Shown in pieces: positions 9,106 to 32,191 of a DNA stretch of 42,586 nucleotides; the first letter of the stretch is position 1, and each line of letters starts with the position of its first letter. A program made the position numbers and the translations under genes. Below the pieces are notes generated by a model that was given only the letters and a program-made list of their open reading frames with translations, was not told where the DNA came from and did no database searches. The stretch comes from Candidatus Woesearchaeota archaeon (GTDB lineage Archaea > Nanobdellota > Nanobdellia > SCGC-AAA011-G17 > GW2011-AR20). The stretch spans positions 1 through 42,586 of the forward strand of contig JAGVYZ010000019.1 in NCBI GenBank assembly GCA_018303025.1, in the 5' to 3' direction.

Positions 9106-9133
9106 GAACCCGTAAAAAATTTTTACGAACCTG
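9084..9133 (+). repeat. copy of the 5' part of tRNA-Trp intron 1
   Basis: gtaagggtttaacacccttcacgaacccgt (9084-9113) is identical to 20047-20076, and acgaacctg recurs at 9125-9133 and 20079-20087. The segment contains the hairpin AAGGGT-ttaac-ACCCTT. Confidence 0.85.
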
Positions 9134-16717: not shown

Positions 16718-17314
16718 TTATTGTCTTGTTGAATCTGTTTGTGTAGAATCTGGTGTTGCTTCCCTTCTGAAAGGTGGGATATAAGCTGTTCTTCCTTCTA
16801 CAAAATTTCTCCAATCTGAACTATCTGCTTGCGCTAATTCTAATTGACGGTCTTGAGTTGCTTTTACTCCTCTTAATCCTTCTTGATAACTTTGAGCTAA
16901 TGAGTCTATTCTAACGTTTGCTGCATTTGTTCTTCTTCTGTTAGCTATGTTTGAGGCTAATGCAGCTCTTGCTTCGGCAGCAAGATTTGTATTTACTCTG
17001 TCTGCTAAACCATAAGCTGAGTTTGCTTTTGTATTTGCTTTATTTGCTAAGTCATAAGTTCTAGCGATACCTCTTTGAGCTGCTCTATCTTGTGCATTTA
17101 ATCTGTTAATCTGATTTATTTGAGCATTGTCAATTTCTCTTTGAGTTGGAACTCTTGGAGCTACCATTGCTGAATCTGCTGTATTTTTAGTTGCAGTTTG
17201 TTCTTCAGCACCCCATGTAATAGGATTGTACCAATGTTTTTTACAGCCTTCTGCTGTTGCTACAACTGAAAGAGTTGCTAATGTATATAAACCGGTTCTA
17301 ATATAATTATTCAT
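16718..17314 (-). CDS. Ala/Arg/Asn/Gln-rich coiled-coil protein with an N-terminal signal/anchor
   Basis: The N-terminal hydrophobic segment LYTLATLSVVATAEGC is followed by low-complexity helical sequence. The gene looks richer in G+C than flanking genes. Confidence 0.6.
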   Translation of the reverse strand: MNNYIRTGLYTLATLSVVATAEGCKKHWYNPITWGAEEQTATKNTADSAMVAPRVPTQREIDNAQINQINRLNAQDRAAQRGIARTYDLANKANTKANSAYGLADRVNTNLAAEARAALASNIANRRRTNAANVRIDSLAQSYQEGLRGVKATQDRQLELAQADSSDWRNFVEGRTAYIPPFRREATPDSTQTDSTRQ

Positions 17315-17387
17315 TTTTTATTCCCCCTAATCTTTATAATTATTAATTTAATTACTATTCTATAGAAGTTAACATTTAAAAACCTTT

Positions 17388-18719: not shown

Positions 18720-19286
18720 ATGGAAAAAGATGTGAAAGGTAGAATTCTTGAAATTTTAAAAGATAGTTTGAATGCAATTGCTTTTAATAAAACAAATAAC
18801 TTGAGAGAATATAGTGATAAGATAATTCATTCAGCTAGCATATATCAGGATGAGAATATTGTAAGTGTTTCTGTCTTAATTTATGCATTGTCAAAAATTT
18901 ATGAAAGAAAAAATTACAGAAATTGCAGAGATTGGGAGAAATTTAATCAGATAGTTGTTATTAATCTAAAAAAAGCTGTTGAGACTTTGGAAAAAGACAA
19001 TGATTCTGATTACTATAAGGCAATAAAAGGAATATCTGAATCCATTAATGGGTTGGACAGGAAATTAAAATTATATATTGAACAGGTTTTTGAAAAAGCA
19101 AAAATTCATAGAGCTAGCAGATTGCATGAACATGGAATTTCTGTTGGAAGGACTGCTGACATTTTGGGGATAAGCAAATGGGAAATTATGGATTATATTG
19201 GACATACTGGAATAAGTGATGTCAAGGAATCAAAAACAATTGCTATTGATAGAAGACTGAAAAAGGCCAGGGAGATATTTTTATGA
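18720..19286 (+). CDS. UPF0175-like HTH protein (putative antitoxin) with a long N-terminal extension
   Basis: The C-terminal GISVGRTADILGISKWEIMDYIGHTGI resembles the UPF0175/COG2886 HTH. Its stop overlaps the start of the next gene (ATGA at 19283-19286). Confidence 0.5.
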   Translation: MEKDVKGRILEILKDSLNAIAFNKTNNLREYSDKIIHSASIYQDENIVSVSVLIYALSKIYERKNYRNCRDWEKFNQIVVINLKKAVETLEKDNDSDYYKAIKGISESINGLDRKLKLYIEQVFEKAKIHRASRLHEHGISVGRTADILGISKWEIMDYIGHTGISDVKESKTIAIDRRLKKAREIFL

Positions 19287-19963
19287 AAACTTTAGTTTTT
19301 GATACAGGAAGCATTATTTCTATTATGACTAATAATCTTATGGATGTTTTGATTAAACTAAAGGAAGAGAGCCAGGTTGATTTTATTGTGACTAATGAAG
19401 TTAAAAAAGAATTATTGGATATTCCCATACAAGGCAAAAGATTCAAATTAGAAGCAATTATGCTTGATTTTTATCTGAAAAAATATTTTAAAACACAGAC
19501 AAACATGAATTTTAACAATTTAATTAATTCTGTTCTTAGTTTGTGCAATACTCTTTTTAGTGTTAATGGGCAATATTTAAAATTAGTTGACAGGGCTGAA
19601 GTTGAAGCTTTAGTTATTGCTAGTTCAATGAGAGCAGATGCTTATGTTGTTGATGAAAGAACAATGAGGCTATTAGTTGAAAATCCAATGAAATTGCATG
19701 AATTATTTGAAAGAAAATTGCATACTAAAATTCAGATTAATAATCGGAATTTACGCGAGTTAATTGACAAATTTTCAGGAATGACTATATTAAGAAGCTG
19801 TGATTTAATGACTATTGCTTATGAAAAACAATTGTTTGTTAAGTATGATTTTCATGAAGAATTATTAGATGCACTTTTATGGGGATTGAAATTAAGAGGG
19901 TGTTCTGTTTCTGAACAAGAGATTGATGAGATTATTAAAATTGAAATAAACAAATCTGCATAA
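19283..19963 (+). CDS. PIN-like domain protein (putative toxin/nuclease)
   Basis: N-terminal LVFDTGSII, then spaced acidic residues (TNEVKKEL, VDRAEVEAL, YVVDERT), consistent with a PIN fold. Translationally coupled to the upstream HTH gene. Confidence 0.5.
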   Translation: MKTLVFDTGSIISIMTNNLMDVLIKLKEESQVDFIVTNEVKKELLDIPIQGKRFKLEAIMLDFYLKKYFKTQTNMNFNNLINSVLSLCNTLFSVNGQYLKLVDRAEVEALVIASSMRADAYVVDERTMRLLVENPMKLHELFERKLHTKIQINNRNLRELIDKFSGMTILRSCDLMTIAYEKQLFVKYDFHEELLDALLWGLKLRGCSVSEQEIDEIIKIEINKSA

Positions 19964-20005: not shown

Positions 20006-20215
20006 GGGGATATAGCACAACCCGGTTAATGCGGTCGGCTCCAGAAGTAAGGGTTTAACACCCTTCACGAACCCGTGAACGAACCTGTTAAAAACAGATT
20101 CATTGATGAAACCGATTGATTCAGGTTCAAATGAAGCTTTTCTTCGCGAAGAAAACCTTCAGGAAAAGAAGGCGAGATGAAGAAAACAAAAGCTCTGAAA
20201 GTCCTGATATCCCCA
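20006..20215 (+). tRNA. tRNA-Trp: tRNA-Trp (anticodon CCA) with two introns (about 20045-20110 and about 20132-20201)
   Basis: Exons 20006-20044, 20111-20132 and 20203-20215 assemble into a 74-nt cloverleaf. Acceptor GGGGATA/TATCCCC; D arm GCAC/ATGC; anticodon stem GTCGG/CCGAT; loop CTCCAGA; T arm TCAGG-TTCAAAT-CCTGA; discriminator A. No CCA is encoded. Confidence 0.8.
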
Positions 20216-20345
20216 GTACTTTTTCTTTTTGAAAAAGAAAACCTACGCTAAAAGAAAACATCTTGGAAAAAACCTACGCTAAAAGAAACATTTAGCAAGA
20301 AAAATCTTATGAGCAAAAAGAAAAAATTAAAGCGAAACGTTTAAA
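20216..20345. repeat. purine-rich repeat leader (AAAGAAAAC units; 21-nt direct repeat AACCTACGCTAAAAGAAA(A)CA x2)
   Basis: The direct repeats lie at 20240-20260 and 20271-20290. aaaagaaaacatcttggaaaaa (20250-20271) closely matches 27422-27444 upstream of the 853-aa surface-protein gene. Confidence 0.7.
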
Positions 20346-20373
20346 AATGTTAACTTCTTAGTGAATAAAACAA

Positions 20374-21786
20374 ATGATTATTTATAGGGGGTTATTTCAA
20401 ATGAAAACATCAAATTTAATAGGTACTGGAGTTCTTTTAGCAGCATTAGCAACAGGTGCAAAAGCTGTAGAAAATCCAAATAGATTTTTAGGAAGAGAAA
20501 ATATTCCTGCAACTTATGTTGGAATGCAAAATGGAAGAGCTGTTTTTGAAGTTAATGATGGTGATTCTACTGCATTTGGTAGATTTTCTAGAATGTTTGA
20601 AACTAAAAATGATATTTTTGAATCTGATTTTGATGGTTTAAGATTTACAAGAACAACTGTAGATTCTGCAACTGGAAATGTAACTTTAAGACCAGTAAGA
20701 GAATTAGTTGATTGCAGAGAAGAAGGAAATCCATTATATGGTTTAAATGGAATTAATCCTGATAGCGGAATTGTTGTTAGAGGATTTAAAGCAGATAATA
20801 GTCCTGGTGAAATTGTTATAACTGTAAATGAATTAGGCGAAGATATAGAAACTTGGGGTGCTAATGCTATTGTTCGATATGCAGCAAATAAAGCTGGTCT
20901 TAAAAAAGGTTTAACATTTATGACTATAAACGGAAGAAATTCTAGATTCATTGAAAACTTAGTACCTTGTTTAGGAGACATTGTAGAATTTGGCGGAGAG
21001 CATGAAAATAGTGGAGCATTTGTTCCATTAACTACTTATAATGTTCATAGGGGATTTAGAGGAGGTACAACTGTATCTGCCTTGCATCCTGTAAGAGATT
21101 CTAGGATGAAGATTAGTGTTGGTCCTAGAGGAAATCCATATTTTACTGGAACTCAAAGATTTAGTGTTGATCCTAGCAAATTAAATGATGGATTACAATT
21201 GAGAATAGAAGATTATGAATGTGATTTGGTTGCAAGAGCATTAAATGCTACTCAATTTAATGCTGGTTATGGAAGATTAAATGGACACAATGGTGTTGAA
21301 GTTGGTGCTATGGTAGACTTGCCTAATAATTTTGTAATAGGTGGAAGTGTTTACAATAGTGTAAGAGATCCAACTACAATTTCTACTTCAGAAAGAACTG
21401 CAGGACAATTTAGAGTAGTGGAAACTGATTCAACAAATGAAAAAATAAGAGCTGTTGAATTTGCCTTAGGAAGAAAAATAACTCTTGGAGATTTAGTTGT
21501 AACACCTAGTATAACAGCAATGCAGGAACAAGTATCTACTTTTATTAATGAAGGACAGCAACTTTATGGAACTGGTGGATTAAAGGAAGATAAAGTAACT
21601 CCTCGGGATACAAGAATGACTGATTATAGTGTTGGTGGAAATGTAAATGTGCAAATTCCATTAGGTAATAGATTTGGAATTTACGGAAATGCTGGTGTAA
21701 GCAATGTTATGAATCCAAAACCAACATTTAGAGCTGGTGTTTATGTTGGAGCTGGCAGAATTTATGATGGAGTTGGTAAACAATGA
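20374..21786 (+). CDS. secreted protein with a beta-barrel-like C-terminal region
   Basis: Signal peptide MKTSNLIGTGVLLAALATGAKA (likely start 20401). The last ~170 aa show Gly/aromatic-rich alternating hydrophobic strands (YSVGGNVNVQIPL, FGIYGNAGVSNV, FRAGVYVGAG). The gene looks richer in G+C than the window average. Confidence 0.65.
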   Translation: MIIYRGLFQMKTSNLIGTGVLLAALATGAKAVENPNRFLGRENIPATYVGMQNGRAVFEVNDGDSTAFGRFSRMFETKNDIFESDFDGLRFTRTTVDSATGNVTLRPVRELVDCREEGNPLYGLNGINPDSGIVVRGFKADNSPGEIVITVNELGEDIETWGANAIVRYAANKAGLKKGLTFMTINGRNSRFIENLVPCLGDIVEFGGEHENSGAFVPLTTYNVHRGFRGGTTVSALHPVRDSRMKISVGPRGNPYFTGTQRFSVDPSKLNDGLQLRIEDYECDLVARALNATQFNAGYGRLNGHNGVEVGAMVDLPNNFVIGGSVYNSVRDPTTISTSERTAGQFRVVETDSTNEKIRAVEFALGRKITLGDLVVTPSITAMQEQVSTFINEGQQLYGTGGLKEDKVTPRDTRMTDYSVGGNVNVQIPLGNRFGIYGNAGVSNVMNPKPTFRAGVYVGAGRIYDGVGKQ

Positions 21787-24095
21787 AAAAATTAATTTTA
21801 TTTTTTATTTTATTAGCATTTGTTTTACCAAGTGCTAATGCTTTAGTCATAGGAAGTCAATGGGTTAATGATGGAACAAGCATAAGTGCAAACAAAGGCG
21901 AAATAGTTTCTTTTACTTATTCTGTTTTCCCAACAATGAATAGATTTACTGATAGTTATAATATTATGATTACTTTAACTAAAGAAGATGGAACTTTCAT
22001 AAGAGAATTAGCTAATACTAATATTAATGGCGGAGATTATAGTGATACACAAAATTTTGCTGTTAACAATGCTGGAAATTATTCTGTAAACATTTTTGTT
22101 AGATATACAACTGGAAGGGATGAAAGAGACACTTCTAATTTAAATTTAAAAGTTTTAGACTCAACTACTGGAAACAATGCACCTGTTATAACAAGCACTG
22201 CTGTTACAACTGCAACTGTAAATACTCTTTATACTTATGATGTTGATGCAAGTGATGCTGATGGTGATACATTAAGTTATAGTTTAACTAATAATCCTAT
22301 TGGGATGAACATAAATTCTAATAGTGGTTTAATTTCATGGACACCCCAGAATATTGGGAGTTATGATGTAAATGTAAAAGTTTCTGATAATAAAAATGGA
22401 GTAGATGAACAATTATTTGTTATTGTTGTTTCAAGTGTTATTCCTGGAAACAATGCACCTGTTATTATAAGCAATCCTGTTTTAACTGGAACTGTAAATA
22501 CTCTTTATACTTATGATGTTGATGCTACTGATGCTGATGGTGATACATTAACTTATTCATTAGTTAGTTCTCCAAATTGGATGCAAATAAATAATGTGAA
22601 TGGATTGATTAGCGGAACTCCAACTCAAACTGGAAATTATGATGTAAATGTAAAAGTTTCTGATAATAAAGGCGGGGTAGATGAACAATCATTTGTTATT
22701 ATTGTTTCAAGTGTTATTCCTGGAAACAATGCACCTGTTATAACAAGTAATCCTGTTTTAACTGGAACTGTAAATACTCTTTATACTTATGATGTTGATG
22801 CTACTGATGCTGATAATGATGTTTTAAGTTATAGTTTAATAAATAAACCAGCTAATATGAATATAAATTCTAATAGTGGTTTAATTTCATGGACACCTAA
22901 TAATATAGGGAATTATAATGTAAATGTAAAAGTTTCTGATAATAAAGGCGGGGTAGATGAACAATCATTTGTTATTATTGTTTCAAGTGTTATTCCTGGA
23001 AACAATGCACCTTATTTTACAAATTTACCTGCTACTGTTACTGCATATAAAAATGTTTTATTTAATTATGATGTAAATGCAATTGATGCTGATGGTGATA
23101 CATTAACTTATTCATTAGTTAGTTCTCCTGATAATGTAGTCATGAACATGAATACAGGTTTAATTACATGGACACCAAATGAGGTAGGAAATTATAATAT
23201 TCAAGTCAGGGTTTCTGACAACAATGGTGGAAGTGCGGTAAGCACATTAACTGTAAATGTCAATATTATTAATCCTAATGATTTAAATGCACAAATTATA
23301 AATCCTAATGAAGGAGATATTTATTATCAAAATACTCCTGTTTTATTAGAAGGAATATCTAATCCAGTTGCTACAAATTATGAATGGAAAATATTTCAGG
23401 GAAATAGTTTAATACGAACAATAACTGGCAATATTATTGGCGGAACAATAAGCACTTTTTATAATTTTGCAGAAACAGGAATTTATCAAATATTATTTGG
23501 GGTTTCTGTTGATGATGTAAAAAGTCCATATGATAATGTTAATATTGAGGTTGTTCAACAACCTGATGTTTCAATAAAAGTAATCAGTTATGTTAACAAT
23601 GCATTAACTGTTGAAGGTGTTGTAATTGATTCAAATTTAATTGAAAAATATTTATGGGACTTTGAAGGAAGAGAAAGAGAAGGAAAAATAGTAAGCATTG
23701 AATTTACACCTGATAAGAAAAGCGTATTTGTCGTATTAACTGCTGTAGACAAATATGGGAATGATTTCATTGCTACTAAATTAATTGATTTAAGTCAATT
23801 TGATGATGGAAAAGAAACATCACAAGTTCATAAAATAAGATTGAATGACATGACTTTTATCAAATCAAATGATGCAGTGCATGTTTTTGTAAATGTAAGA
23901 AATGAAGGAAATAACGACGAGAAAGTTAGCTTGAGAGTTAATATTGGAAGATTTGTCCAGTATGATTCATTTACATTAAGCAAAAATGATGTATTACAAA
24001 GACATTTTGTCTTTAAAGAAACTGATGATCAACATGTAATAAACGCAGAAGCAACTGTAGGGAGTAAAAAGTATACTATCTACAAAGTGATGTAG
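21783..24095 (+). CDS. secreted adhesin-like protein with four cadherin-like (He_PIG/dystroglycan-type) repeats plus a CARDB-like C-terminal domain
   Basis: Signal peptide MKKLILFFILLAFVLPSANA. Four 92-aa repeats follow the pattern NAPVITS..NTLYTYDVDA.DADGDTL.YSL....GLISWTP...G.Y.VNVKVSDNKGG. The start overlaps the upstream stop (ATGA). No C-terminal TM segment. Confidence 0.8.
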   Translation: MKKLILFFILLAFVLPSANALVIGSQWVNDGTSISANKGEIVSFTYSVFPTMNRFTDSYNIMITLTKEDGTFIRELANTNINGGDYSDTQNFAVNNAGNYSVNIFVRYTTGRDERDTSNLNLKVLDSTTGNNAPVITSTAVTTATVNTLYTYDVDASDADGDTLSYSLTNNPIGMNINSNSGLISWTPQNIGSYDVNVKVSDNKNGVDEQLFVIVVSSVIPGNNAPVIISNPVLTGTVNTLYTYDVDATDADGDTLTYSLVSSPNWMQINNVNGLISGTPTQTGNYDVNVKVSDNKGGVDEQSFVIIVSSVIPGNNAPVITSNPVLTGTVNTLYTYDVDATDADNDVLSYSLINKPANMNINSNSGLISWTPNNIGNYNVNVKVSDNKGGVDEQSFVIIVSSVIPGNNAPYFTNLPATVTAYKNVLFNYDVNAIDADGDTLTYSLVSSPDNVVMNMNTGLITWTPNEVGNYNIQVRVSDNNGGSAVSTLTVNVNIINPNDLNAQIINPNEGDIYYQNTPVLLEGISNPVATNYEWKIFQGNSLIRTITGNIIGGTISTFYNFAETGIYQILFGVSVDDVKSPYDNVNIEVVQQPDVSIKVISYVNNALTVEGVVIDSNLIEKYLWDFEGREREGKIVSIEFTPDKKSVFVVLTAVDKYGNDFIATKLIDLSQFDDGKETSQVHKIRLNDMTFIKSNDAVHVFVNVRNEGNNDEKVSLRVNIGRFVQYDSFTLSKNDVLQRHFVFKETDDQHVINAEATVGSKKYTIYKVM
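22170..23273 (+). repeat. 4 x 276-bp in-frame tandem repeat inside the adhesin gene
   Basis: Repeat starts (ggaaacaatgcacct) are at 22170, 22446, 22722 and 22998. Flanks of repeats 2 and 3 are nearly identical at DNA level. The middles alternate in an ABAB pattern: R1 resembles R3 and R2 resembles R4. Confidence 0.9.
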
Positions 24096-24160
24096 TTACC
24101 AAAAAGTTTATAAACATGTTGTTACTAAAGAATTAACATAGCTTAGGGGGGAAAATTAAA

Positions 24161-25459
24161 ATGAAAAAATTATTTGTATTATTAGTATTATTATTTAGTT
24201 TAGTTAGTTTAAACACAGTTATGGCTGTTGAGCCTGTTACTGTTACAAACATAGAAATAAATGGCGTAGATGTTCAAGGATTAGATGCATTATATGTTGA
24301 AAGAGGAGACATATTAAATGTAAGAGTAACTGTTTCAGCTGATTCTAATGTTGCTGATTTAAGAATAAGAGCTTCTTTAGATGCTTCTTATGAATATGGC
24401 GGACCAATAGACCAGGATTCAGCTTTAATGAAATTAGATGCTGGAAGTTCAAGAGTAATTAATTTACAATTACAAATACCAAGTGATATTGATGCTTCTG
24501 AAGATACTTCTATTACTATAGATGTAAATGCAGATGGTGAAAGAGTAGATCTTGCTTTAGATACTTTTCCAATAAGATTACAAGAAAAAAGACATGCTGT
24601 TGAATTATTTGATGTAATTATAAATCCAGGTTTAAGTGTTAGAGATTACTTATCTGTTTCAGCTGTTGTTGAAAATATGGGTGACTGCATAGATGTTACT
24701 TCATGTGAACCTGAAAAGAATGTAATTATTGAAGCAAGCATTCCTGCATTAGGAATTAGCGTAAGAGATTCAATAGACAAATTATATCCTGACACTTTAG
24801 AAGATGATAGTGATGAAAGTGCAAGAGATTCTACTGCTAAAGTAAATTTACCTATTATAGACTTAAGCAATGCTCCTGCTGGAACTTATGAATTAAGAGT
24901 AAGAGCATACTTTAATAGAAAAAATGACTTTACTGAAAAGAAATACACTTTAGTTGTAGAAAAAGGCATTGCATCTGATTTAATATTCAATGCAGATTCA
25001 ACAAGCAAAAATGTTGAAGCTGGAGAAACTGTTGAATATAAATTAAGTGTAGCTAACTTAGGAAAGAATGACAGAACATTTTTAGTAAATGTTGAAGGTG
25101 TAAGTACATTTGGAAGCGCAAATGTTGAACCTAGAATGATTACTGTTAGAGCTGGTACTACACAAGATGTTAAATTAACTTTAGTTGCTAAAGACAATAT
25201 TCAAGGAACTAATTTGTTCAGTGTAAAATTACTTGAAAATGGACAAATGGTACAAGAATTAAATTTAGAAGCTAAAGCAAGTGATGACAACTTAGCTACT
25301 TTCAAGACAGGATTACAAGTAGGTTTCGTAATATTATTGGTTATCTTAATAATATTAGGAATAATTGTTGCTTTATCAAGAGGAAAGGATAATGGAAATG
25401 TAGAAGTTCCAACTCCTTCCAGAAAAGAAGACAACGACAAACCACAAACCTATTACTAA
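24161..25459 (+). CDS. S-layer/CARDB-like cell-surface protein with a C-terminal TM anchor
   Basis: Signal peptide MKKLFVLLVLLFSLVSLNTVMA, beta-rich acidic domains (NVEAGETVEYKLSVANLGKNDRTFLVNVEG), a C-terminal TM (FVILLVILIILGIIVAL) and a short tail. Confidence 0.75.
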   Translation: MKKLFVLLVLLFSLVSLNTVMAVEPVTVTNIEINGVDVQGLDALYVERGDILNVRVTVSADSNVADLRIRASLDASYEYGGPIDQDSALMKLDAGSSRVINLQLQIPSDIDASEDTSITIDVNADGERVDLALDTFPIRLQEKRHAVELFDVIINPGLSVRDYLSVSAVVENMGDCIDVTSCEPEKNVIIEASIPALGISVRDSIDKLYPDTLEDDSDESARDSTAKVNLPIIDLSNAPAGTYELRVRAYFNRKNDFTEKKYTLVVEKGIASDLIFNADSTSKNVEAGETVEYKLSVANLGKNDRTFLVNVEGVSTFGSANVEPRMITVRAGTTQDVKLTLVAKDNIQGTNLFSVKLLENGQMVQELNLEAKASDDNLATFKTGLQVGFVILLVILIILGIIVALSRGKDNGNVEVPTPSRKEDNDKPQTYY

Positions 25460-25553
25460 GGTTTCTTTTAGGAAAAGAAAGTCCTGAAAGAAAAATAAAG
25501 AAATCCTGAATTTTTTATTTTTTTATTTAAATTTTATACAAAAGTGAGATAAA

Positions 25554-25973
25554 ATGGCAAGAGGAAGACAACCCAAAAGAATTGTAGAAACAGTAGCTGA
25601 AAAGTTTGCTGTTTGCTTTGCTTCTGATGATGTTTCTATTGTAGTTGGTGTTACAAATGCAAATTCTGGATATAGATGTCCTGGTTTTAATTTTTTTGTG
25701 AAAGGAGATGTTTTCTTGGATATAATAAAGGATGGCAAAGATGTAGAAGTTTATTCTGCAAGACAAGACTTACATCCTTTTAATGATTTAGACAGAGCTA
25801 TACAATCTTTAGACATGATAGCTATTAACAGAACATTGGAAAAAGAAGGTATAAGCGTTATAAAACCTAGAGAATTTAAATATTTGTTTGGGCCATTATT
25901 TGTAAAATATAATCCAGGCATGAAAGGAGTGGGCAATCAAGATATTCATGAAAATTACTTGATTGTTATTTAA
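25554..25973 (+). CDS. hypothetical cytosolic protein (139 aa), unrecognised
   Basis: Longest ORF at this locus and free of low-complexity sequence. The opposing 71-aa and 79-aa ORFs look spurious. No signal peptide or TM. Confidence 0.55.
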   Translation: MARGRQPKRIVETVAEKFAVCFASDDVSIVVGVTNANSGYRCPGFNFFVKGDVFLDIIKDGKDVEVYSARQDLHPFNDLDRAIQSLDMIAINRTLEKEGISVIKPREFKYLFGPLFVKYNPGMKGVGNQDIHENYLIVI

Positions 25974-25990
25974 CTTATTTATGGAGAAAA

Positions 25991-26443
25991 ATGGCAGAAG
26001 AAAGAAAATCACCTTTAGAATCGTTTAATTATCCTAAATCCATGCATCTTGTTTTTAATCCAATGACTAAATACACCCACGTTGATAATTATTCTTTATA
26101 TGTTTTGAGACTTACAAAAGTTGAAGCTATTTATAGTGATGGAAATGATTTCAGAGGCAATCTGGCTATTGATGAAATTCCAAGAGATTATAGAGTTGAT
26201 TCAAAAGGAAATAGAGTTTTGTGTGTAGGAGAAGATGTTGTTTCTAAATTTAGCGAAGTTATTAAGGGAAATAAAAGATTAGGAGATATTGAAAGAGAAG
26301 GAATAGAAATTACTTTTAAAGTTAGAAACTGGGTAGAATTCAAATATGATGTAGGAAGACAAATAAGGCAAAAAACAGGTCTTTTAATTGATTCAGAGGA
26401 ATTACTTAGACCAATATTTGATGAGTATAGCAAAGTAATTTAA
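25991..26443 (+). CDS. hypothetical cytosolic protein (150 aa), unrecognised
   Basis: ORF 17 nt downstream of the previous gene on the same strand. No recognisable motifs. Confidence 0.55.
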   Translation: MAEERKSPLESFNYPKSMHLVFNPMTKYTHVDNYSLYVLRLTKVEAIYSDGNDFRGNLAIDEIPRDYRVDSKGNRVLCVGEDVVSKFSEVIKGNKRLGDIEREGIEITFKVRNWVEFKYDVGRQIRQKTGLLIDSEELLRPIFDEYSKVI

Positions 26444-26445
26444 TT

Positions 26446-27264
26446 TTACTTTTTTATTAAATCTTTTATTTGATTAAATAATAGTCTTTTATTGAATTTT
26501 AAGTCTTCTATGAATGATTCTGGAAGAACATCTAATTCTGGAATCTTGTTGAAAATATTATCTGTTATGTTCATGCAGCTTTCTATTTTGTTTATTGAGA
26601 ATTTATTTAATTCCAGCTTATTTTGATTTAACAAAATATTTAATTCTTTCAATTTATCAAATGAATTTATTATGCTGTTTAGGATTATTTCTGAGTTTAA
26701 TGTATCTATCTTTCTGGTATATCTGCTTTTATTTGATTTGCTTATTGTTGTATGAATATTGTTTAATGTGTCTTCAAATAGGGTTATATGTGATTGGACT
26801 TCTTCTATATCGTGTTGTTTTATTGTTTTGTTTTCTAATCTTTCAAAAACTCTTGCTAGATTCTGCCTGAATAACAATAAAGAGGATCTTATTCTACTTA
26901 TTCTTTCATTAAATGAGATTTCATAGATTTCAGATACAATTACTTCTTGTTTAATTGAGACTAATTTTGAGGTTACTAATGCAAGTAATAATAAACCCAA
27001 AATTACCTGGATTATTGCTATTATTCTGAAAAAACCTAATGGAATTATATCTCCAAAACCTGTTGTTGTTGCTGTTATGAAACTAAAATATATATCTGTT
27101 GATAACTTGGTAATTACTTCTTCTGTTTGTGTTGAGAGCAAAAAAGATGAATCATTTGAAAAGAAATGATAGATTAATCCAAAACCCGAGATAATTATTA
27201 TCCATAAAGTCAGGATATTAAGAAAAGACAATTTATCAAGCCAAGTTTCTAGTTTAAAGTTCAT
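26446..27264 (-). CDS. two-TM potassium channel with a cytoplasmic C-terminal domain
   Basis: Selectivity filter TATTTGFGDIIP flanked by TM helices (LTLWIIIISGFGLIYHFF and IIAIIQVILGLLLLALV). Confidence 0.8.
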   Translation of the reverse strand: MNFKLETWLDKLSFLNILTLWIIIISGFGLIYHFFSNDSSFLLSTQTEEVITKLSTDIYFSFITATTTGFGDIIPLGFFRIIAIIQVILGLLLLALVTSKLVSIKQEVIVSEIYEISFNERISRIRSSLLLFRQNLARVFERLENKTIKQHDIEEVQSHITLFEDTLNNIHTTISKSNKSRYTRKIDTLNSEIILNSIINSFDKLKELNILLNQNKLELNKFSINKIESCMNITDNIFNKIPELDVLPESFIEDLKFNKRLLFNQIKDLIKK

Positions 27265-27299
27265 TAGGCTCTTTCACTTTGATGTTAAATTTATAAACT

Positions 27300-27470
27300 T
27301 TATCCATAAGGTTTTTCTTTTGGTCGAGAAAGCAAAGCTTTCTAGACTCCAGAAAACTAAAGTTTTCTTGAGTAAAAGAAAACCCTGATAAAGAAAACAC
27401 TTAGGAAAAGAAAAGTTCTGAAAAAGAAAACATTTTTGGAAAAAGTCTTGAAAAAGAAAAGAAAATTTGA
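27300..27470. repeat. purine-rich repeat leader related to 20216-20345 and 25470-25490
   Basis: AAAGAAAAC-type units at 27374-27383, 27390-27398 and 27421-27431. AGGAAAAGAAAAGTTCTGAAAAAG is at 27403-27426. Hairpins AGAAAGC-aaa-GCTTTCT and AGAAAAC-taaa-GTTTTCT are also present. Confidence 0.7.
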
Positions 27471-27552
27471 TATTTGCTATTAAATATATTCTAATTACAT
27501 AAACTTTAAATAGGAATGACTTTCTTTGAGTAATAAAGGGGAGTTGTTTTAA

Positions 27553-30114
27553 ATGAATGGTAAATATATAATAATATTAATGATTTTTGCAATGCTTGCT
27601 ATAAACGTAAATGCTGATTTTACTTTAAGTTCTGATACTTTAGAACAGACTGTATGTCAGGGTAATACTGTTTTGTTCACAACTAAAGTTTTAGGTTCTG
27701 GATTATTTTCTGTTAACCAAGAAGGAAATGGAGCTTCATTTTCTACAACTGTTCCTTTAAATGCCCAGTCAAATGGAGTATTTTACACTTATATGACACC
27801 TTCTTCTTTAACTTTGCCTGGAAATTATAACTTAAATGTTGTTGTTAATGATGGTGCAACTGTAAAAAAAGCAAATTATGCATTAAATGTGCAGGATTGC
27901 CATGCAATGCAAATTAAAGCTGAGACTGTAAAGGATATTTGCGAATGCGGGAGTGAAAGAATTGGCTTTAAGATTAAGAATAATGGGAAGTTTACTGAAA
28001 CCTATACATTAAGCTTAACTGGCTCTGGAAAAGATATTGCTAAACTAGCTTCTGATTCAGTTAGCTTGGATGCTAATGAAGAAAAAGAAGTTACTGTTAA
28101 TGTTGATGCTCCATGCAATCTGGAAAGTGCTTTTGATTTAACATTAAATGTTGTTTCCAAGAATAGCGATGCTAGTTCTAGTTTTACTACTTTAATTAAT
28201 GTAAACAAATGCTATGGCTTTGATGCTAATCTTGAAAAAAGCTATTTGAGTTTATGCGAGAAAGAAGATACTTCCTTAAAATTAGACATTACTAATTTAG
28301 GTGTTTATGATAATAATTTCAAAATTAAAGTTGATGGTGTAAACTGGATTAATGTTGAGAAGAATGAAGTTTCTATTCTACAAAAAGGAAAAGAGAGTGT
28401 TAACTTGCTTATTAAACCTGGCTCTAATATTGGAAACTTTACTGCTAAAGTAAAAATAAGCACCAAAGACAATAATATTGTAAAAGAGGGCGAGTTAAAA
28501 GTTGATATTAGAAAATGCTATGGTGTTAATTTAAATGTTGATTCTGAATTTAAAGTTTGCAATGCATTTGTTTCTTCAAAAGAGATTGAAGTTAAAAATC
28601 CAGGTGAATTTGCTGAAACTTTTATGATTAAGGGCGGTTATGACTGGATAGAAGAAGAGAATATAACTCTACAAAGCAAAGAGACTAAAAAAGTATTATT
28701 GAGATTAAATCCTGAAAATCTAAAAGAAGGAGATTATAGAACTCAAATTACTGTTACTAATGTCAAAGATGATAATTTGAAAGAAGAAAAAACAGTAACA
28801 ATAACTGTTGTTGACAAAATCAATTGCTATGGTGTTAGTTTGACTCTTGATAAAAATATTGATGTCAAAAGAGATTCTTCAAAATTAGTCACTGTTACTT
28901 TGAAAAATAATGGTTTTGAAGATGGAAAATATTTACTTGAATTAAATGGAAACACTAATTTTGTACAGGTAAATCCTTCTATTTTAGAAATAGAACATGG
29001 AAAATCAGCTAATACTTATTTATACATTGCACCTTCAAAATCAGTTGAAGAAGGTGTTTATGAGGTAATATTGAAAGTTAAATTAGAGGATAATACTTTA
29101 ATTAAAGAAGAAAGACTTAATATTAAAGTTGGAACAGAAAGCAAAGTTGTTTCTTCTAATACAACTTCTTTTTGGAGTAAAATAACTGGATGGTTTACTT
29201 TTGAAGTTAAAAATGAAACCAAAGTACAACCTGTAAAAACAGTTAAATTAAATGCTAATGGTGTAAAGGTTAAAGCTAATACTTCATTTATTATTGGAAA
29301 TGAAACACATTCATTTGAGATTGTTGAAATGGATAATGAGAGTGCTACAATTGTCTTTAAATCTGATCCTGTTGTAGTTTCTTTAGATAATAATGAGACT
29401 ATTAAAGTTGATTTAAATCAAGATGGGAAAGAGGATGTTTCTGTAACTTATCTTAATAATGAGTTTTTAATTAAACAAATTGCTGAAGAAAAAGAATCTT
29501 TTTTTAACCAGAGAAATTTGATAATAATAGGGGTAATTATTGGTGTTTTAATATTAGGAATATTGCTTTACTTCATGATTGCTTCTGATAGTGAAGAAGA
29601 AACAAAAGAAGAAAAGTTTGAACTTGAGGAAGAGGAAGAAGGCGGTTATAGGATAGGAAGATGGATATTGGGATTGATTGCAATTGGTGTTTTAGCTTAT
29701 TATTTCAAAGATTCTATTAATTGGAAGGATTATCTACTTGCTTATAAAAACTATATTATAATTGGCTTAATCTGCTTAATTGGAATTGTTATATTAGCTA
29801 AATACTGGAAACAAATTAATAATTTTTTAGATGATTTAGACGAGGAAGAGAAGAAGCCTCTTGATAAAAGCCTTAAAAGAACAAGTTCTTCTAGCAGAAG
29901 CCTTTTAGAAAAAGCCTTCAGGGAAAAGCAAAGCTTAACACTTCAGGGAAAAGAGAAAGAAAAGAAAAGACTTATTGTTAGGCATACTAAAGAAGTTGAA
30001 AAAAAACATGCTGTGAAAAAAGAGGTTATTGTAAAAAAACCTGTTAATGAAGAGAAAAAAAGAGGAAGACCTAAGAAAGTTGAAGAGAATACAGAAGATA
30101 ATATTGAAGAATGA
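27553..30114 (+). CDS. large S-layer/CARDB-like surface protein with three TM segments and a Lys-rich cytoplasmic tail bearing an AT-hook
   Basis: Signal peptide. Repeated ~100-aa beta domains are each introduced by a C(Y/H)G/A motif (VQDCHAM, VNKCYGF, IRKCYGV, KINCYGV). TM segments begin near residue 655. The tail contains KKRGRPKK (RGRP at 30061-30072). Confidence 0.8.
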   Translation: MNGKYIIILMIFAMLAINVNADFTLSSDTLEQTVCQGNTVLFTTKVLGSGLFSVNQEGNGASFSTTVPLNAQSNGVFYTYMTPSSLTLPGNYNLNVVVNDGATVKKANYALNVQDCHAMQIKAETVKDICECGSERIGFKIKNNGKFTETYTLSLTGSGKDIAKLASDSVSLDANEEKEVTVNVDAPCNLESAFDLTLNVVSKNSDASSSFTTLINVNKCYGFDANLEKSYLSLCEKEDTSLKLDITNLGVYDNNFKIKVDGVNWINVEKNEVSILQKGKESVNLLIKPGSNIGNFTAKVKISTKDNNIVKEGELKVDIRKCYGVNLNVDSEFKVCNAFVSSKEIEVKNPGEFAETFMIKGGYDWIEEENITLQSKETKKVLLRLNPENLKEGDYRTQITVTNVKDDNLKEEKTVTITVVDKINCYGVSLTLDKNIDVKRDSSKLVTVTLKNNGFEDGKYLLELNGNTNFVQVNPSILEIEHGKSANTYLYIAPSKSVEEGVYEVILKVKLEDNTLIKEERLNIKVGTESKVVSSNTTSFWSKITGWFTFEVKNETKVQPVKTVKLNANGVKVKANTSFIIGNETHSFEIVEMDNESATIVFKSDPVVVSLDNNETIKVDLNQDGKEDVSVTYLNNEFLIKQIAEEKESFFNQRNLIIIGVIIGVLILGILLYFMIASDSEEETKEEKFELEEEEEGGYRIGRWILGLIAIGVLAYYFKDSINWKDYLLAYKNYIIIGLICLIGIVILAKYWKQINNFLDDLDEEEKKPLDKSLKRTSSSSRSLLEKAFREKQSLTLQGKEKEKKRLIVRHTKEVEKKHAVKKEVIVKKPVNEEKKRGRPKKVEENTEDNIEE

Positions 30115-30440
30115 GAGTTGAAATACATCAACATAATAGTGAAGTGGTTTTAACAGGTGTTCCATTTTGGTGTACACCAAGAAGAGTTGCAGATACTTTA
30201 GCAAGATTGTCTGGTGTTGCTTGCAGAATTGATAGAAGTGAAGAAGGTGATTATAATGTTTCCAGGCAAGATTCTAATGGCGGTCCTATTTTTAATGTAA
30301 ACTCAATGGGACATGGAGAAATAATTGTTTGGTATAAGGGATTAAGTTCTTATGCTTCAGTCGAAGTAGTTCGGGACTTGCCTGGAGAAATAAGAAACCC
30401 CTTTTATGGATTTTTAAAATCTTTTAGGCAAGGACTATAA
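30111..30440 (+). CDS. hypothetical cytosolic protein (109 aa), translationally coupled to the surface protein
   Basis: Its ATG overlaps the upstream TGA (ATGA at 30111-30114). Unrecognised. It looks richer in G+C than its surroundings. Confidence 0.5.
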   Translation: MRVEIHQHNSEVVLTGVPFWCTPRRVADTLARLSGVACRIDRSEEGDYNVSRQDSNGGPIFNVNSMGHGEIIVWYKGLSSYASVEVVRDLPGEIRNPFYGFLKSFRQGL

Positions 30441-30897
30441 AAATAATATCTTTTCCTTCATCAATTTCTTTAATATTTTTAAAATGTTTTTTCATTAATT
30501 TTCTGAAATTATTCAGTTTTTTTGATTTTTTTAAAAAAGTAATGCAAATGTTATTGTTTTTAGATACTCGCTTTGTTTCTTTTATTGCTTTTTCTAAATT
30601 ATTTACATTTTGAAATGCTGTAACTGAGATTATTGTTGAAAATGACTTGTTTTTGAATTTTAATGATTCTGCATTGCCTTCTATACAGTTTTTTCCTGCT
30701 AATTTTAACATTTCTTTATTATTGTCTATGCCTATTGCTTTTACTTTGAAGAATTTTGTTGAAATGCCTGTTCCACAGCCAATATCTAATAAAGGGGGGA
30801 TAATCTTCATATTTTCTTTTATCACTCTCAATTTCTTTAATTGTTCTTCTTCGTATAAGTTATTATATCCTTTTGCTAATCCTGAGTAAAAGTCCAT
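30424..30897 (-). CDS. class I SAM-dependent methyltransferase
   Basis: Motif I LLDIGCGTGISTKFF followed by an acidic post-I residue (IGIDNN). The short 157-aa Rossmann-type layout fits the class. Confidence 0.8.
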   Translation of the reverse strand: MDFYSGLAKGYNNLYEEEQLKKLRVIKENMKIIPPLLDIGCGTGISTKFFKVKAIGIDNNKEMLKLAGKNCIEGNAESLKFKNKSFSTIISVTAFQNVNNLEKAIKETKRVSKNNNICITFLKKSKKLNNFRKLMKKHFKNIKEIDEGKDIIFIVLA

Positions 30898-31360: not shown

Positions 31361-31729
31361 TTATTGCCTTGCTTCTACAGGCAAATTTGCATTTATCCTT
31401 GTTCTTGCACTATCTGGAGTAGAATTATCAAATGGCAAGACATATTCTCCATTTTGAAATATTTCTGCAAATGTGCACCTTGTTGGATAAACCCTGACAT
31501 TTATTTTATCTTGAGTTAATGTACTTGCATTTGGCAAGAATGTCAAATCATAACCCTTGTTTGTTGAATCAATTTGGCCTGGACATGTATATTTGAATAC
31601 ATCCAAACGAGGATTGCCTCTTACTATTTGGGAATAAACAGAAGAAATATCTGATGCTATGCTTGCAGATGCTAAACTAACTGCGAGTGTTAAACTTGTT
31701 GCGAATTTTGCAAATGTTCTCATTATCAA
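31361..31729 (-). CDS. small secreted 2-Cys protein, paralog of 31784..32191
   Basis: Signal peptide MRTFAKFATSLTLAVSLASASIA (likely start at the third codon). It shares the MRTFAK leader, two Cys and the layout of the neighbouring gene. Confidence 0.6.
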   Translation of the reverse strand: MIMRTFAKFATSLTLAVSLASASIASDISSVYSQIVRGNPRLDVFKYTCPGQIDSTNKGYDLTFLPNASTLTQDKINVRVYPTRCTFAEIFQNGEYVLPFDNSTPDSARTRINANLPVEARQ

Positions 31730-31783
31730 TTAATGTAAAAAACTATTTTAAGCATTTCGTTTAATTATTAGAAACCTTAAGGT

Positions 31784-32191
31784 TTATTGATGGTTTCTTG
31801 CTGCTTGTAATTCTGAATCGAATCTTGTTTTAACTGAATCTGGAAAATTTCTAGGAGATTGGTTTAATGGATACCAAGCACCATTAACATAAAAAGTAAG
31901 AGTGTCTGTGCAAATACTGACTGGCGGATGATAATCAGCTTGGACTGTAATTTGAGTAACAGAAGTATCAGAAGGTGTAAATGTTAAACTATGCACTGTA
32001 TATCCAATTTGATTTAATCCTTGTCTGCAATTAGCCTTATACTCTGTTATTTTTAATTCTCCTCTTTTTAGTTGAGAGAAAACTTCTGAAACAGAAGGTC
32101 TTGCTTGTTCTTGTTGTCTGGAAGCGACTCGTGCTGCTGTTAAACTTGCAATTATAGAAAAAATTGCAGCTATTTTTGCAAATGTTCTCAT
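31784..32191 (-). CDS. small secreted 2-Cys protein, paralog of 31361..31729
   Basis: Signal peptide MRTFAKIAAIFSIIASLTAARVA. Arranged in tandem with its paralog. Confidence 0.6.
   Translation of the reverse strand: MRTFAKIAAIFSIIASLTAARVASRQQEQARPSVSEVFSQLKRGELKITEYKANCRQGLNQIGYTVHSLTFTPSDTSVTQITVQADYHPPVSICTDTLTFYVNGAWYPLNQSPRNFPDSVKTRFDSELQAARNHQ

Follow-up and report, generated by a model that had tools for sequence, protein, structure and literature searches.

A probable cell-envelope and adhesin gene neighbourhood in a Pacearchaeota-like DPANN archaeon

The window analysed here is a stretch of 42,586 nt, and the block under study occupies about 10 kb of it (20,374-30,440). This block is probably a gene neighbourhood for the cell envelope and adhesins of an uncultivated groundwater DPANN archaeon that is Pacearchaeota-like (class Nanoarchaeia), and not a dedicated multi-part contact machine. 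All eight open reading frames of the preliminary description were found again, with one correction, to the start of gene A. As proposed there, four of them encode signal-peptide proteins (A, 461 aa; B, 770 aa; C, 432 aa; G, 853 aa); the others are three orphans (D, E and H) and a 2-TM K+ channel (F). At least four separate promoters or transcription units are present. Domain content and topology agree with the earlier view of a surface or envelope protein block, and the assignment to a DPANN-type archaeon agrees with archaeal traits of the window: an intron-bearing tRNA, inteins in Lhr and SMC, TrmB/Lrp regulators and BRE/TATA promoters. Overall it resembles an ordinary envelope/adhesin locus that evolves rapidly, with one unusual member, A, the tail of which has a predicted fold similar to that of bacterial outer-membrane barrels. 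The functions given below for the block genes are putative, drawn from sequence and prediction, as would be any role in host contact.

The coupled genes A and B

Gene A (20401..21786, + strand) was taken to start at 20401 (M10) and not at 20374, because the 461-aa form is used by gene calls in 22 metagenome contigs and because a GGGGG Shine-Dalgarno sequence, spacer and ATG align across three species. Its promoter and 5′UTR (20333..20400, + strand), with the BRE/TATA element CGAAACGTTTAAAAAT and this Shine-Dalgarno sequence, showed 79% mean column identity in the three-species alignment. The protein has a Sec-type signal peptide ending …ATGAKA before VE, a variable N-region rich in Gly, Ala, Arg and Pro, and a beta-rich C-terminal domain of 195 aa (residues 267-461, nt 21199-21783, + strand). 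A single distant relative, P0026, with 38% identity, was found among 1.84 billion representatives. The C-terminal domain also resembles that of A′ (SW z=7.2; 0/300 shuffles), an A-like protein encoded on L022, a 242-kb metagenome contig of a relative whose housekeeping proteins are 54-71% identical.

The C-terminus of A had been described as beta-barrel-like. AF2, working from a 2-sequence alignment, gave a medium-confidence model of the domain (pLDDT 62, pTM 0.50), a meander of long antiparallel hairpins. The top Foldseek matches of this model in both PDB and BFVD were outer-membrane beta-barrels of the OmpX/Ail/OmpA type (prob ~1.0, TM 0.4-0.57), with RMSD values of 7-11 Å and PDB E-values >0.001. 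Sequence tests of barrel identity all fell below threshold; Pfam OMP_b-brl scored 17.8 bits with full-length A and 22.6 bits with the domain alone, against a cutoff of 28.7. In predicted fold the 195 aa are like OmpX, Ail, the OmpA TM domain and Thermus TtoA (8-stranded barrels; OMP_b-brl, PF13505). Ail and OmpX are tied to adhesion, and context suggests that A may be too. The A domain differs from these small barrels in its archaeal host, its sequence score, the medium confidence of its model and its C-terminus, which ends GVGKQ without an aromatic residue. DPANN archaea are not known to have an outer membrane or BAM.

Gene B (21783..24095, + strand) encodes a signal peptide, an N-domain, He_PIG repeats and C-terminal Ig-like domains, and its start overlaps the stop of A (ATGA). 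Its earlier portrayal as an A-coupled, anchorless, adhesin-like protein with four cadherin-like repeats proved accurate. He_PIG was matched in four stretches (Pfam, E=3e-56), four He_PIG/cadherin-like repeats of 92 aa span aa 131-498 (a 276-nt unit in 3.4 copies by TRF), and no TM, sortase-type or PGF/PEF-type anchor signal was seen. With these tandem units, far above threshold, B resembles the He_PIG and bacterial cadherin-like repeat adhesins (PF05345; Big_9, PF17963), from which it differs in being anchorless, archaeal and coupled to an orphan upstream gene. Repeat number typically varies in stalk-type adhesins, and it does so in B: a 678-aa variant in another assembly has exactly one 92-aa unit fewer, the rest being 99.7% identical. 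Repeat collapse in short-read assemblies could produce such a copy-number difference. The L022 counterpart, B′, is 39% identical and has two He_PIG stretches.

Tight A-B coupling was observed in three species. The sister species L015 has the same ATGA overlap as the window, with a partner gene that begins with a B-like signal peptide, and in L022 the stop of A′ adjoins or overlaps the start of B′; in every case B is translated directly after A. A′ holds a He_PIG-like domain of its own, the domain type of B, at a sub-threshold score (20.4 bits, cutoff 24). It is intimin-like in layout, with signal peptide, N-region, He_PIG and C-terminal beta domain in one polypeptide, whereas in the window the anchor-like and repeat parts are divided between A and B. 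Autotransporter and intimin-invasin adhesins follow a common logic, a beta-barrel-like anchor domain joined to Ig/cadherin-like repeats, but the likeness of A-B to them is architectural only: there is no Pfam autotransporter or intimin match, the predicted barrel is nearer the 8-stranded OmpX types, and no outer membrane is known for the organism. A and B may form a stoichiometric pair, in which the beta-rich C-terminal domain of A would tether the complex to a membrane or the coat and the repeat stalk of B would project a binding domain outward.

Membrane-anchored proteins and gene order in relatives

Gene C (24161..25459, + strand) encodes a signal peptide, Ig-like beta-sandwich domains with weak matches, a single TM near the C-terminus (389-405), followed by a short tail that ends QTYY. 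Its L022 counterpart, C′, is 58% identical, of equal length, and also ends QTYY. The signal peptide, Ig-like domains and TM fit the previous label of a TM-anchored S-layer/CARDB-like protein; CARDB and COG1361 were not recovered in domain searches, and the NCBIfam model of the putative S-layer protein PACE-CTERM-PROT scored 55 bits (E=5e-15), half its cutoff of 110. C′ scored 47 bits (E=1e-12) with the same model. Both proteins match the C-terminal ~340 positions of this Pacearchaeota model (NF033506), including the TM end, and share with its members a signal peptide, beta-sandwich domains of Ig-like type and a TM anchor at the C-terminus. C differs in having 432 aa against 627 model positions, the N-terminal half being unmatched, and in a score far under the curated cutoff. 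It is the best-conserved member of the block and a candidate S-layer-type protein.

Gene G (27553..30114, + strand) was predicted to have a signal peptide, an ectodomain of ~630 aa with Cys-bracketed Ig-like repeats, three hydrophobic segments (656-672, 701-717 and 733-749) and a basic, K/E-rich cytoplasmic tail of 100 aa (29 K+R), a topology matching the 853-aa surface protein with three TM segments and a tail that had been claimed. The juxtamembrane motif KYW..IN.FLD.LDEE is conserved and present also in L018, and G′ of L022 is 46% identical over 785 aa. No PDB relatives of C or G were found. Both carry several Ig domains and are anchored in the cell membrane through TM helices at the C-terminus, and C, possibly also G, may build or anchor an S-layer-type coat.

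The conserved right-hand boundary of the block is a gene for a SAM-dependent methyltransferase (MT, 157 aa; 30424..30897, − strand). In all relatives having flanks it is convergent with a TM-anchored surface-protein gene, and even at 63-70% MT identity the convergent gene encodes an Ig protein with signal peptide, TM and basic tail. More distant relatives keep MT and one surface protein, and nothing more. In the family-level relative L022, the gene order is MT / small ORF / G′ / small ORF / C′ / B′ / A′, so that the core of four Sec-exported proteins, A, B, C and G, keeps its order and orientation beside the same methyltransferase. A check for conserved gene order, proposed at the outset, thus succeeded for these four genes and failed for the remainder, as the L022 block has no K+ channel, tRNA, D/E/H homolog or purine-rich leader repeats. 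The flanking housekeeping genes dCD, Lrp and SMC are collinear in L022 too; the conserved order is therefore no specific evidence of a functional module, and may be merely inherited collinearity.

The inclusion of housekeeping flanks in this synteny, together with the lone surface gene beside MT in distant relatives, the multiple promoters or units and the lack of conservation of the orphans, would also fit a chance neighbourhood, in which unrelated surface genes and fast-turnover orphans adjoin by accident, a common situation in small DPANN genomes with many hypothetical surface proteins, and coupling extends at most to A-B. We consider this rather unlikely, given that A-B coupling persists in three species at 23-38% identity, that A′ has the domain type of B, and that the four core genes have stayed together even where housekeeping proteins are 54-71% identical. 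An envelope and adhesin neighbourhood is preferred.

Orphan genes, K+ channel and leader repeats

In line with the initial proposal, the whole block might be read as a co-regulated host-contact apparatus, comprising the surface proteins, the K+ channel and three orphan partners, switched via purine-rich leader elements. Gene D (139 aa; 25554..25973, + strand) has a coding-type codon pattern (GC1>GC2>GC3), and its similarity to L022 X175 was not significant. Gene E (150 aa; 25991..26443, + strand) is a strict orphan that found only itself among 5.8 billion clusters. Gene H (109 aa; 30111..30440, + strand) is coupled to G start to stop (ATGA), as reported before, with an overlap of 17 nt at the 3′ end of the MT gene. 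None of the three matched Pfam, NCBIfam, PHROGs, PADLOC or PDB sequences or showed a signal peptide or TM, and they remain unrecognisable proteins of cytosolic type. Their proposed role as dedicated cytosolic partners gained no comparative support, with no homologs in L022 and H absent also from L018. The coupling of H to G speaks for such an apparatus, as do the conserved cytoplasmic juxtamembrane motif of G, which could dock a partner, and the L022 small ORFs, which lack signal peptide and TM and lie at the two corresponding places, one behind C′ and one close behind G′. However, none of these ORFs, which include an unrelated one of 128 aa at the H position, is similar in sequence to D, E or H (z<=2.2).

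Gene F (272 aa; 26446..27264, − strand) encodes a 2-TM K+ channel with the pore TATTTGFGD (Ion_trans_2, E=3.7e-11, 43.2 bits against a cutoff of 22.5) and a cytosolic domain of ~170 aa of unknown type. The channel is present as claimed; against its membership of a module stand its absence from the L022 block and its location on the opposite strand.

Three leaders had been said to share purine-rich repeats. Leader 1 (20216..20332, + strand) has a T-rich/A-rich hairpin (20216-20246) followed by a purine-rich array of 17-nt period (AAAAGAAAACCTACGCT, 3.5 copies). Leader 2 (25460..25553, + strand) comprises a TTTCTTTT/AAAAGAAA hairpin, two purine-rich units AAGTCCTGAA and a T-rich/TATA region. Leader 3, the divergent F/G spacer (27265..27552, + strand), contains hairpins, a purine-rich array of 15-16-nt period (27367-27470), and then the G promoter, 5′UTR and SD (~27475-27552), which align with L022, where the repeats are absent. 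In leaders 1 and 3, TRF detected arrays with a period of 15-17 nt. Eight copies of AAAGAAAAC were present against 2.7 expected, a number reached in 0/100 shuffles, and five of the eight lie in leaders 1 and 3; AGGAAAAGAA occurs three times where 0.61 are expected, its sites being tRNA intron 2 and leaders 2 and 3. The repeat family is therefore statistically real and concentrated in the three leaders, which favours the apparatus. Against it, purine-rich repeats also lie inside tRNA intron 2, the leader 1 array is absent from the orthologous leaders of L015 and L022, and L015 has repeats upstream of the tRNA, not in the A leader. The conserved part of the leaders is the BRE/TATA-5′UTR-SD segment. 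Co-regulation via the repeats thus lacks comparative support, and with the channel, D, E, H and the repeats all absent from the L022 block we regard the apparatus as improbable. As to F, D, E, H, tRNA-Trp and the spacer repeats, no link to the core emerged, and they are probably lineage-specific neighbours.

tRNA-Trp, base composition and divergence

A tRNA-Trp(CCA) gene with two introns (20006..20215, + strand) adjoins the block and lies outside it. No tRNA was detected in the unspliced window by ARAGORN or Rfam; 20006-20215 minus both introns gave 74 nt, which ARAGORN called tRNA-Trp(CCA). The exons (20006-20044, 20111-20132 and 20203-20215, + strand) are separated by intron 1 (20045-20110, 66 nt), at the canonical 37/38 site, and intron 2 (20133-20202, 70 nt), after the T-loop. 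L015 has the same two-intron gene (68/74 exon bases identical; introns of 106 and 115 nt). The position of the block directly downstream of tRNA-Trp was confirmed in the window, after intron removal, but not as a conserved feature, as there is no tRNA near A′ in L022.

Several block genes are, as first noted, richer in G+C than housekeeping genes, to a modest degree (A 0.335, H 0.358, D 0.314; gene mean 0.282, sd 0.035). This excess, though real, is slight and is confined to codon positions 1 and 2; GC3 of these genes is 0.09-0.17, at or below the genome norm, and the L022 orthologs show the same pattern. It arises from amino-acid composition, the proteins being rich in Gly, Ala, Arg and Pro while GC3 is low, and marks neither foreign origin nor an island. 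A genomic island or provirus that integrated at tRNA-Trp and brought in foreign, higher-G+C surface genes would account for a block that begins right after a tRNA, contains above-average G+C in A, D and H and many orphans, and has different content downstream of the tRNA in the more distant relative L016, where unrelated genes follow. It is nonetheless very improbable. Besides the composition, searches of the block showed neither an integrase nor a recombinase, there was no att repeat and no second copy of the tRNA 3′ end within 3 mismatches, L022 has the core without any tRNA, and there were no PHROG matches or relatives on viral contigs.

A and nearby Gly/Ala/Arg/Pro-rich secreted proteins diverge far faster than neighbouring housekeeping genes. 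With L015, identity is 37-38% for A against 88-90% for XPD, p188 and p226; with L017, it is 38% for s135 and 84% for MT. In Nanoarchaeota, hypothetical cell-surface proteins are reported to show higher non-synonymous variation (Jarett et al. 2018, PMC6142677). The block is alike in that secreted or TM hypotheticals outpace housekeeping genes in an ultra-small, probably symbiotic archaeon, although that study measured within-population non-synonymous SNP density, whereas the contrast here is between species, the population being nearly clonal. Rapid divergence of the surface proteins may reflect host or virus pressure. The envelope and adhesin neighbourhood is lineage-specific, and its moderate interest rests mainly on the A-B pair.

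Source contig and the tRNA-Trp gene

The window is a complete NCBI contig of 42,586 bp, and near-identical copies of it lie on contigs of up to 53.9 kb from Rifle aquifer groundwater metagenomes. A two-intron tRNA-Trp, inteins in the Lhr helicase and SMC genes, TrmB- and Lrp-type regulators, BRE/TATA-like promoters and a match of surface protein C to a Pacearchaeota NCBIfam model, together with the fact that the sole genome-collection relative of a neighbouring gene belongs to a 'Candidatus Nanoarchaeia archaeon', indicate that the source organism is, judged by its sequence, a DPANN-type archaeon. The inteins in the Lhr-type helicase (5134-9105, minus strand) and in SMC (37424-42379, plus strand) each carry a LAGLIDADG homing-endonuclease domain, and a free-standing LAGLIDADG open reading frame (9390-10613, plus strand) adjoins the Lhr gene. 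The SMC ortholog on L022, a contig from a more diverged relative, is of equal length (1650 aa), so that the SMC intein is probably common to both. The contig opens with a tandem array of about seven copies of TAATAATTAAA (1-83), which is probably the reason that assembly ended there. Two intergenic or pseudogene-like stretches (1451-2180 and 3184-3535) lie beside nucleotidyltransferase (NTP_transf_2/Polbeta) genes and have in common a near-identical segment of about 130 nt (…taaattaaacgaaa[ag]gtagtgg[ag]gaaggca…ggagaagcatataattgacctt…); the second also contains gtttcatttgaaac in three to four copies. Both may be remnants of HEPN/MNT toxin-antitoxin cassettes that have decayed, or else a small repeat element.

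No tRNA was called in the unspliced window by ARAGORN or Rfam. When positions 20045-20110 and 20133-20202 were removed by manual splicing, ARAGORN called tRNA-Trp(CCA) in 20006-20215, with an intron of 66 nt at the canonical 37/38 position and a second of 70 nt after the T-loop. The acceptor stem and the intron hairpins are visible in the minimum free energy fold. A two-intron ortholog is present on a sister-species contig (L015, 3284-3578), with 68 of 74 exon bases identical and introns of 106 and 115 nt. The spliced form accepted by ARAGORN and this ortholog bear out the tRNA-Trp gene that had been proposed upstream of the block. On the more distant contig L016 the tRNA-Trp gene was found directly by ARAGORN. 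Intron 2 contains a half C/D-box-like arrangement, GAUGA-14 nt-CUGA (20173-20202); a C/D-box sRNA here is a weak candidate, its sole basis being one weak Rfam match (sR17, 15.3 bits, E=0.38). Intron 1 contains two tandem copies of the motif ACGAACC(C/T)G (20067-20090), and two to three copies of the same type recur in the spacer between the Lhr and LAGLIDADG genes (9106-9160; gaacccgt…acgaacctg…acgaacttg). The sequence CTTCACGAACCCG is kept in intron 1 of the L015 tRNA.

Gene order, composition and spacers of the surface-protein block

The open reading frames reported earlier are present at their positions, with the exception of the start of A (461 aa), the first signal-peptide protein after the tRNA. 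It starts at 20401 (M10), as in 22 metagenome gene calls, behind a GGGGG Shine-Dalgarno sequence that aligns in three species. In the sister species (L015 and L017), XPD, the two genes upstream of the tRNA (p188 and p226) and the SAM-dependent methyltransferase at the right-hand boundary of the block (MT, 30424-30897, minus strand) are 84-90% identical to those of the window, A is 37-38% identical, and the small secreted protein s135 is 38% identical. L015 keeps the order p188, p226, tRNA, A and coupled gene, and its coupled gene starts with a signal peptide like that of B.

L022 belongs to a contig of 242 kb whose housekeeping proteins are 54-71% identical to those of the window. Its genes run in the order MT, 128-aa open reading frame, G', 175-aa open reading frame, C', B' and a 611-aa A', and G', C' and B' are 46%, 58% and 39% identical to their counterparts. 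C' has the length of C and the same QTYY end, and B' contains two He_PIG stretches. A' is a signal-peptide protein whose C-terminal 185 aa or so resemble those of A (Smith-Waterman z=7.2, 0 of 300 shuffles); this shuffle-controlled C-terminal comparison was the only significant one, and the profile comparison of A with A' was marginal (hhalign probability 2.6%). The promoter and 5' UTR of A' can be aligned with those of A, and A' itself has a weak He_PIG match below threshold (20.4 bits, cutoff 24). The K+ channel gene and the tRNA are absent from L022, and no homologs of the cytosolic proteins D, E and H were found there. The two small open reading frames in equivalent positions look coding and are unrelated in sequence; their homology to D, E and H was rejected by BLASTP and shuffle z-scores.

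Since A, B, C, G and MT are kept in L022 and the other parts are not, the conserved core appears to be A-B-C-G beside MT, as judged from this one long relative contig. The flanking housekeeping genes dCD, Lrp and SMC are also collinear in L022, so that the order of the core may have been inherited rather than selected. Gene order is thus conserved for the four surface-protein genes and MT, but not for F, D, E, H, the tRNA or the leader repeats. As F, D, E, H and the repeats are missing from L022, there is no support for reading the whole block as one undescribed contact apparatus that includes a channel and dedicated cytosolic partners. What remains is a putative envelope or adhesin neighbourhood, lineage-specific and fast-evolving. 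It has a core of four genes, several strict orphans and, in A, a potentially unusual family.

In more distant relatives MT is 63-75% identical. On L018 a G-like tail abuts MT, without H. Five contigs (L019-L021, L024 and L026) encode a protein of 581-593 aa, with signal peptide, TM segment and basic tail, that is convergent with MT, and they are without C, B and A. Comparison of G with these 581/593-aa MT-adjacent proteins was not significant (z 0.8-2.1). In every flanked relative (L019-L021 and L024-L026), and in the window (30111-30897), the 3' end of MT converges on a gene for a surface protein of this kind, often overlapping it, and this holds even where no homology to G is detectable.

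On the other side of the block, p188, which has a weak HTH_7 match, overlaps p226 and is followed by tRNA-Trp in the window (18720-19963, plus strand; tRNA at 20006), L015 (1683-3013) and L016 (801-2181). On L016 the trio is followed by unrelated genes. When a genome collection was scanned with p226, a single short contig, from a Nanoarchaeia MAG, was returned, and its tRNA is not followed by a surface block; the trio is kept from the window to this MAG at 45-47% identity. Both p188 and p226 match the PADLOC candidate system PDC-S70 weakly (E=1e-5 and 1e-4), and may therefore be a toxin-antitoxin-like or defence pair. Upstream of p188 lie p198 and p420 (16718-18650, minus strand), which are Gly/Ala/Arg/Pro-rich proteins. 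In L015 (552-1630) their place is taken by two other proteins, one of 191 aa that is barely related to p198 (z=5.1) and one of 150 aa that is unrelated, although the flanking XPD is 89% identical. This region appears to form another hypervariable patch, flanking the conserved trio on the side away from the block. Two paralogous small secreted proteins, s122 and s135 (31361-32191, minus strand; z=23), are encoded between MT and dCTP deaminase (dCD). The sister-species copy (L017, 156-542) is 38% identical, compared with 84% for MT. On L018-L023 dCD lies about 50-870 nt from MT, and no homolog of s122 or s135 was detected between them.

Several genes of the block are richer in G+C than their surroundings, as had been noticed: A has a G+C content of 0.335, H 0.358 and D 0.314, against a gene mean of 0.282, and p198, p420, s122 and s135 outside the block are also above the mean. 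The excess lies at codon positions 1 and 2 because the proteins consist of 24-34% Gly, Ala, Arg and Pro. GC3 of the G+C-rich genes is 0.09-0.195, within or below the range of other genes. The position of the excess, the low GC3 and an equal pattern in the L022 orthologs argue against recent import. No integrase and no duplicated tRNA 3' end (att) were found, and the block gave no PHROG matches and no viral-contig relatives. A tRNA-integrated genomic island or provirus is very unlikely on these grounds, GC3 not being elevated. An att site formed by GAAAGTCCTGA, which is common to the tRNA end and leader 2, was rejected, as there is no extended match.

The small proteins of the block fit their initial description. 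F is a 2-TM K+ channel, with an Ion_trans_2 match (PF07885) of 43.2 bits against a cutoff of 22.5. Its hydrophobic segments 15-31 and 81-97 enclose the sequence TATTTGFGD, which contains a TxGxGD selectivity filter. D, E and H are unrecognisable, presumably cytosolic proteins: they have neither signal peptide nor TM segment, nothing in Pfam, NCBIfam, PHROGs, PADLOC or the PDB sequences matches them, scans of viral contigs with them gave nothing, and E has no relative among 5.8 billion clusters. Codon-position G+C was used in place of within-population pN/pS to judge their coding status; the population is nearly clonal. All three have GC1>GC2>GC3, as do real genes in this A+T-rich genome.

The spacers before A (leader 1, from 20216), before D (leader 2, from 25460) and between F and G (leader 3, 27265-27552) had been said to share a purine-rich repeat family. 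The family is statistically real, but it is neither specific to the block nor conserved. AAAGAAAAC is found 8 times where 2.7 would be expected, and 5 of these copies lie in leaders 1 and 3, whereas AGGAAAAGAA is limited to tRNA intron 2, leader 2 and leader 3. Leaders 1 and 3 contain periodic arrays of 15-17 nt detected by TRF, and each leader opens with a hairpin of the TTTTCTTTT/AAAAGAAAA type just after the preceding gene. Purine-rich repeats also occur within tRNA intron 2. In L015 they are found upstream of the tRNA and in intron 2 and are absent from the A leader; in L022 they are absent from the orthologous A' and G' leaders. The conserved part of the leader is a segment of about 70 nt comprising BRE/TATA, 5' UTR and Shine-Dalgarno sequence. 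In our reading the arrays are probably minisatellite-like spacer sequence peculiar to the lineage, although a regulatory role, so far unsupported, is conceivable.

Surface proteins B, C and G

The topologies first proposed for these three proteins were reproduced. C (432 aa) has a signal peptide, weak Ig-like matches and one C-terminal TM segment, and is thus TM-anchored. Its match to the PACE-CTERM-PROT putative S-layer protein model (NF033506) reached 55.1 bits, and that of C' 47.3 bits, below the curated cutoff of 110 and covering model positions of about 281-622 alone. C, whose conservation equals that of the housekeeping genes, is the leading candidate for a structural coat protein of the S-layer type. 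CARDB, suggested earlier for this type of protein, gave no match at E<=0.01 in Pfam or NCBIfam. Other Ig-like families were matched weakly and mostly below cutoff (FixG_C, 30.2 bits in C and 24.6 in G; NPCBM_assoc; choice_anch_T). Searches of PDB sequences with C and G gave nothing meaningful.

G (853 aa) has a signal peptide, three hydrophobic segments and a basic tail of 100 aa, consistent with a large surface protein with three TM segments and a cytoplasmic tail. By prediction it is a larger protein of Ig repeats, anchored by three TM segments, and its cytoplasmic motif KYW..IN.FLD.LDEE is conserved. Identity of the anchor with the FILTED domain (NF052597) was rejected, the scores of G (15.1 bits) and G' (26 bits) being below the cutoff of 40. 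A word-indexed homolog search with G, as with A and E, returned the protein itself or near-identical cluster members. The cytoplasmic tail contains KKRGRPKK (30060-30085, residues ~836-844), which resembles an AT-hook with its GRP core; the G' tail is Lys-rich and is without KKRGRPKK.

B (770 aa) matches He_PIG (PF05345) in Pfam with 188.2 bits against a cutoff of 24 (E=3e-56) in four stretches, and no TM anchor was found, in agreement with four cadherin-like repeats and no anchor of its own. The repeat unit is 276 nt, present in 3.4 copies. Forms of B of 770 and 678 aa differ by exactly one unit, a difference that collapse of the repeat in short-read assembly could also produce. An apparent 412-aa variant was rejected as a scaffold-gap artefact containing 100 Ns. 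The joint translation of A and B, seen in three species, the lack of an anchor in B and the occurrence in A' of the domain type of B suggest that A tethers B. The beta-rich C-terminal domain of A would keep B at the surface, and B, as a stalk of 2-4 units, would display a binding domain; we infer all such functional steps for A, B, C and G. Divergence of the A-B pair, and of the other Gly/Ala/Arg/Pro-rich secreted proteins, has been far more rapid than that of the genes beside them. This rapid divergence matches the elevated non-synonymous variation reported for hypothetical surface proteins of Nanoarchaeota (PMC6142677). It would fit pressure from hosts or viruses, or replacement of alleles.

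The C-terminal domain of A

An exhaustive search of 1.84 billion representatives with A returned its own cluster and a single distant relative, P0026, so that with A' on L022 three A-type proteins were found. Searches of PDB sequences with A and with a profile of its domain gave nothing meaningful. Full-length A gave an unusable AF2 model (pLDDT 33). The C-terminal 195 residues were modelled with pLDDT 62 and pTM 0.50, rising to pLDDT 70-83 across the central 110 residues or so, from a shallow alignment and with two of five models above pLDDT 58. The model consists of very long antiparallel hairpins. Its Foldseek neighbours in the PDB are OmpX, Ail, the OmpA TM domain and Thermus TtoA (probability ~1.0, TM 0.4-0.57, E >=2e-3), and its best BFVD matches are phage-encoded 'outer membrane protein beta-barrel' proteins (E=1.4e-4). 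The sole family match of A is Pfam OMP_b-brl (PF13505), below the cutoff of 28.7 bits both at full length (17.8 bits) and for the C-terminal domain (22.6 bits). The preliminary description of a beta-barrel-like C-terminus is therefore fair to the prediction, but the sub-threshold scores do not establish membership of a barrel family.

These models raise the prospect that A-type proteins are true membrane-inserting barrels of the OmpX/Ail type, anchoring the coupled adhesin B either in the membrane of a host cell or in an outer layer of the archaeal envelope that has gone unrecognised. P0026 and A' gave no OMP_b-brl match, and the three C-termini (…GVGKQ, …GGRQ and …GVGK) are without the terminal aromatic residue of a beta-signal. 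A dyad-amphipathicity count in A-type proteins was not above shuffles or Ig controls (z=1.0-1.9), so that this test was non-discriminating. No outer membrane or BAM is known in DPANN archaea. The shallow alignment, with reasonable models in two of five cases, the missing terminal aromatic residue, the non-discriminating dyad test and the lack of a known DPANN outer membrane or BAM count against a true membrane barrel, which we consider improbable.

Little is known of the ways in which ultra-small DPANN archaea attach to their hosts and exploit them, and their surface proteins are mostly unannotated. The locus offers a concrete candidate set: the coat protein candidate C, the predicted Ig-repeat protein G with its cytoplasmic motif, and the fast-evolving pair formed by A, an orphan beta-domain protein, and B, an anchorless cadherin-like adhesin. 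Should the barrel of A not be real, the locus would be typical of 'two-speed' evolution in DPANN surface proteomes, and the C-terminal domain of A, now searchable as a profile, would be of use in annotation all the same. If the OmpX-like barrel were real, its fold would be unexpected in an archaeal envelope and would point to a mechanism of membrane contact; A and B would then be a BAM-independent archaeal equivalent of the barrel-anchored adhesins of bacteria, and would give the attachment of DPANN archaea to their hosts a physical basis.
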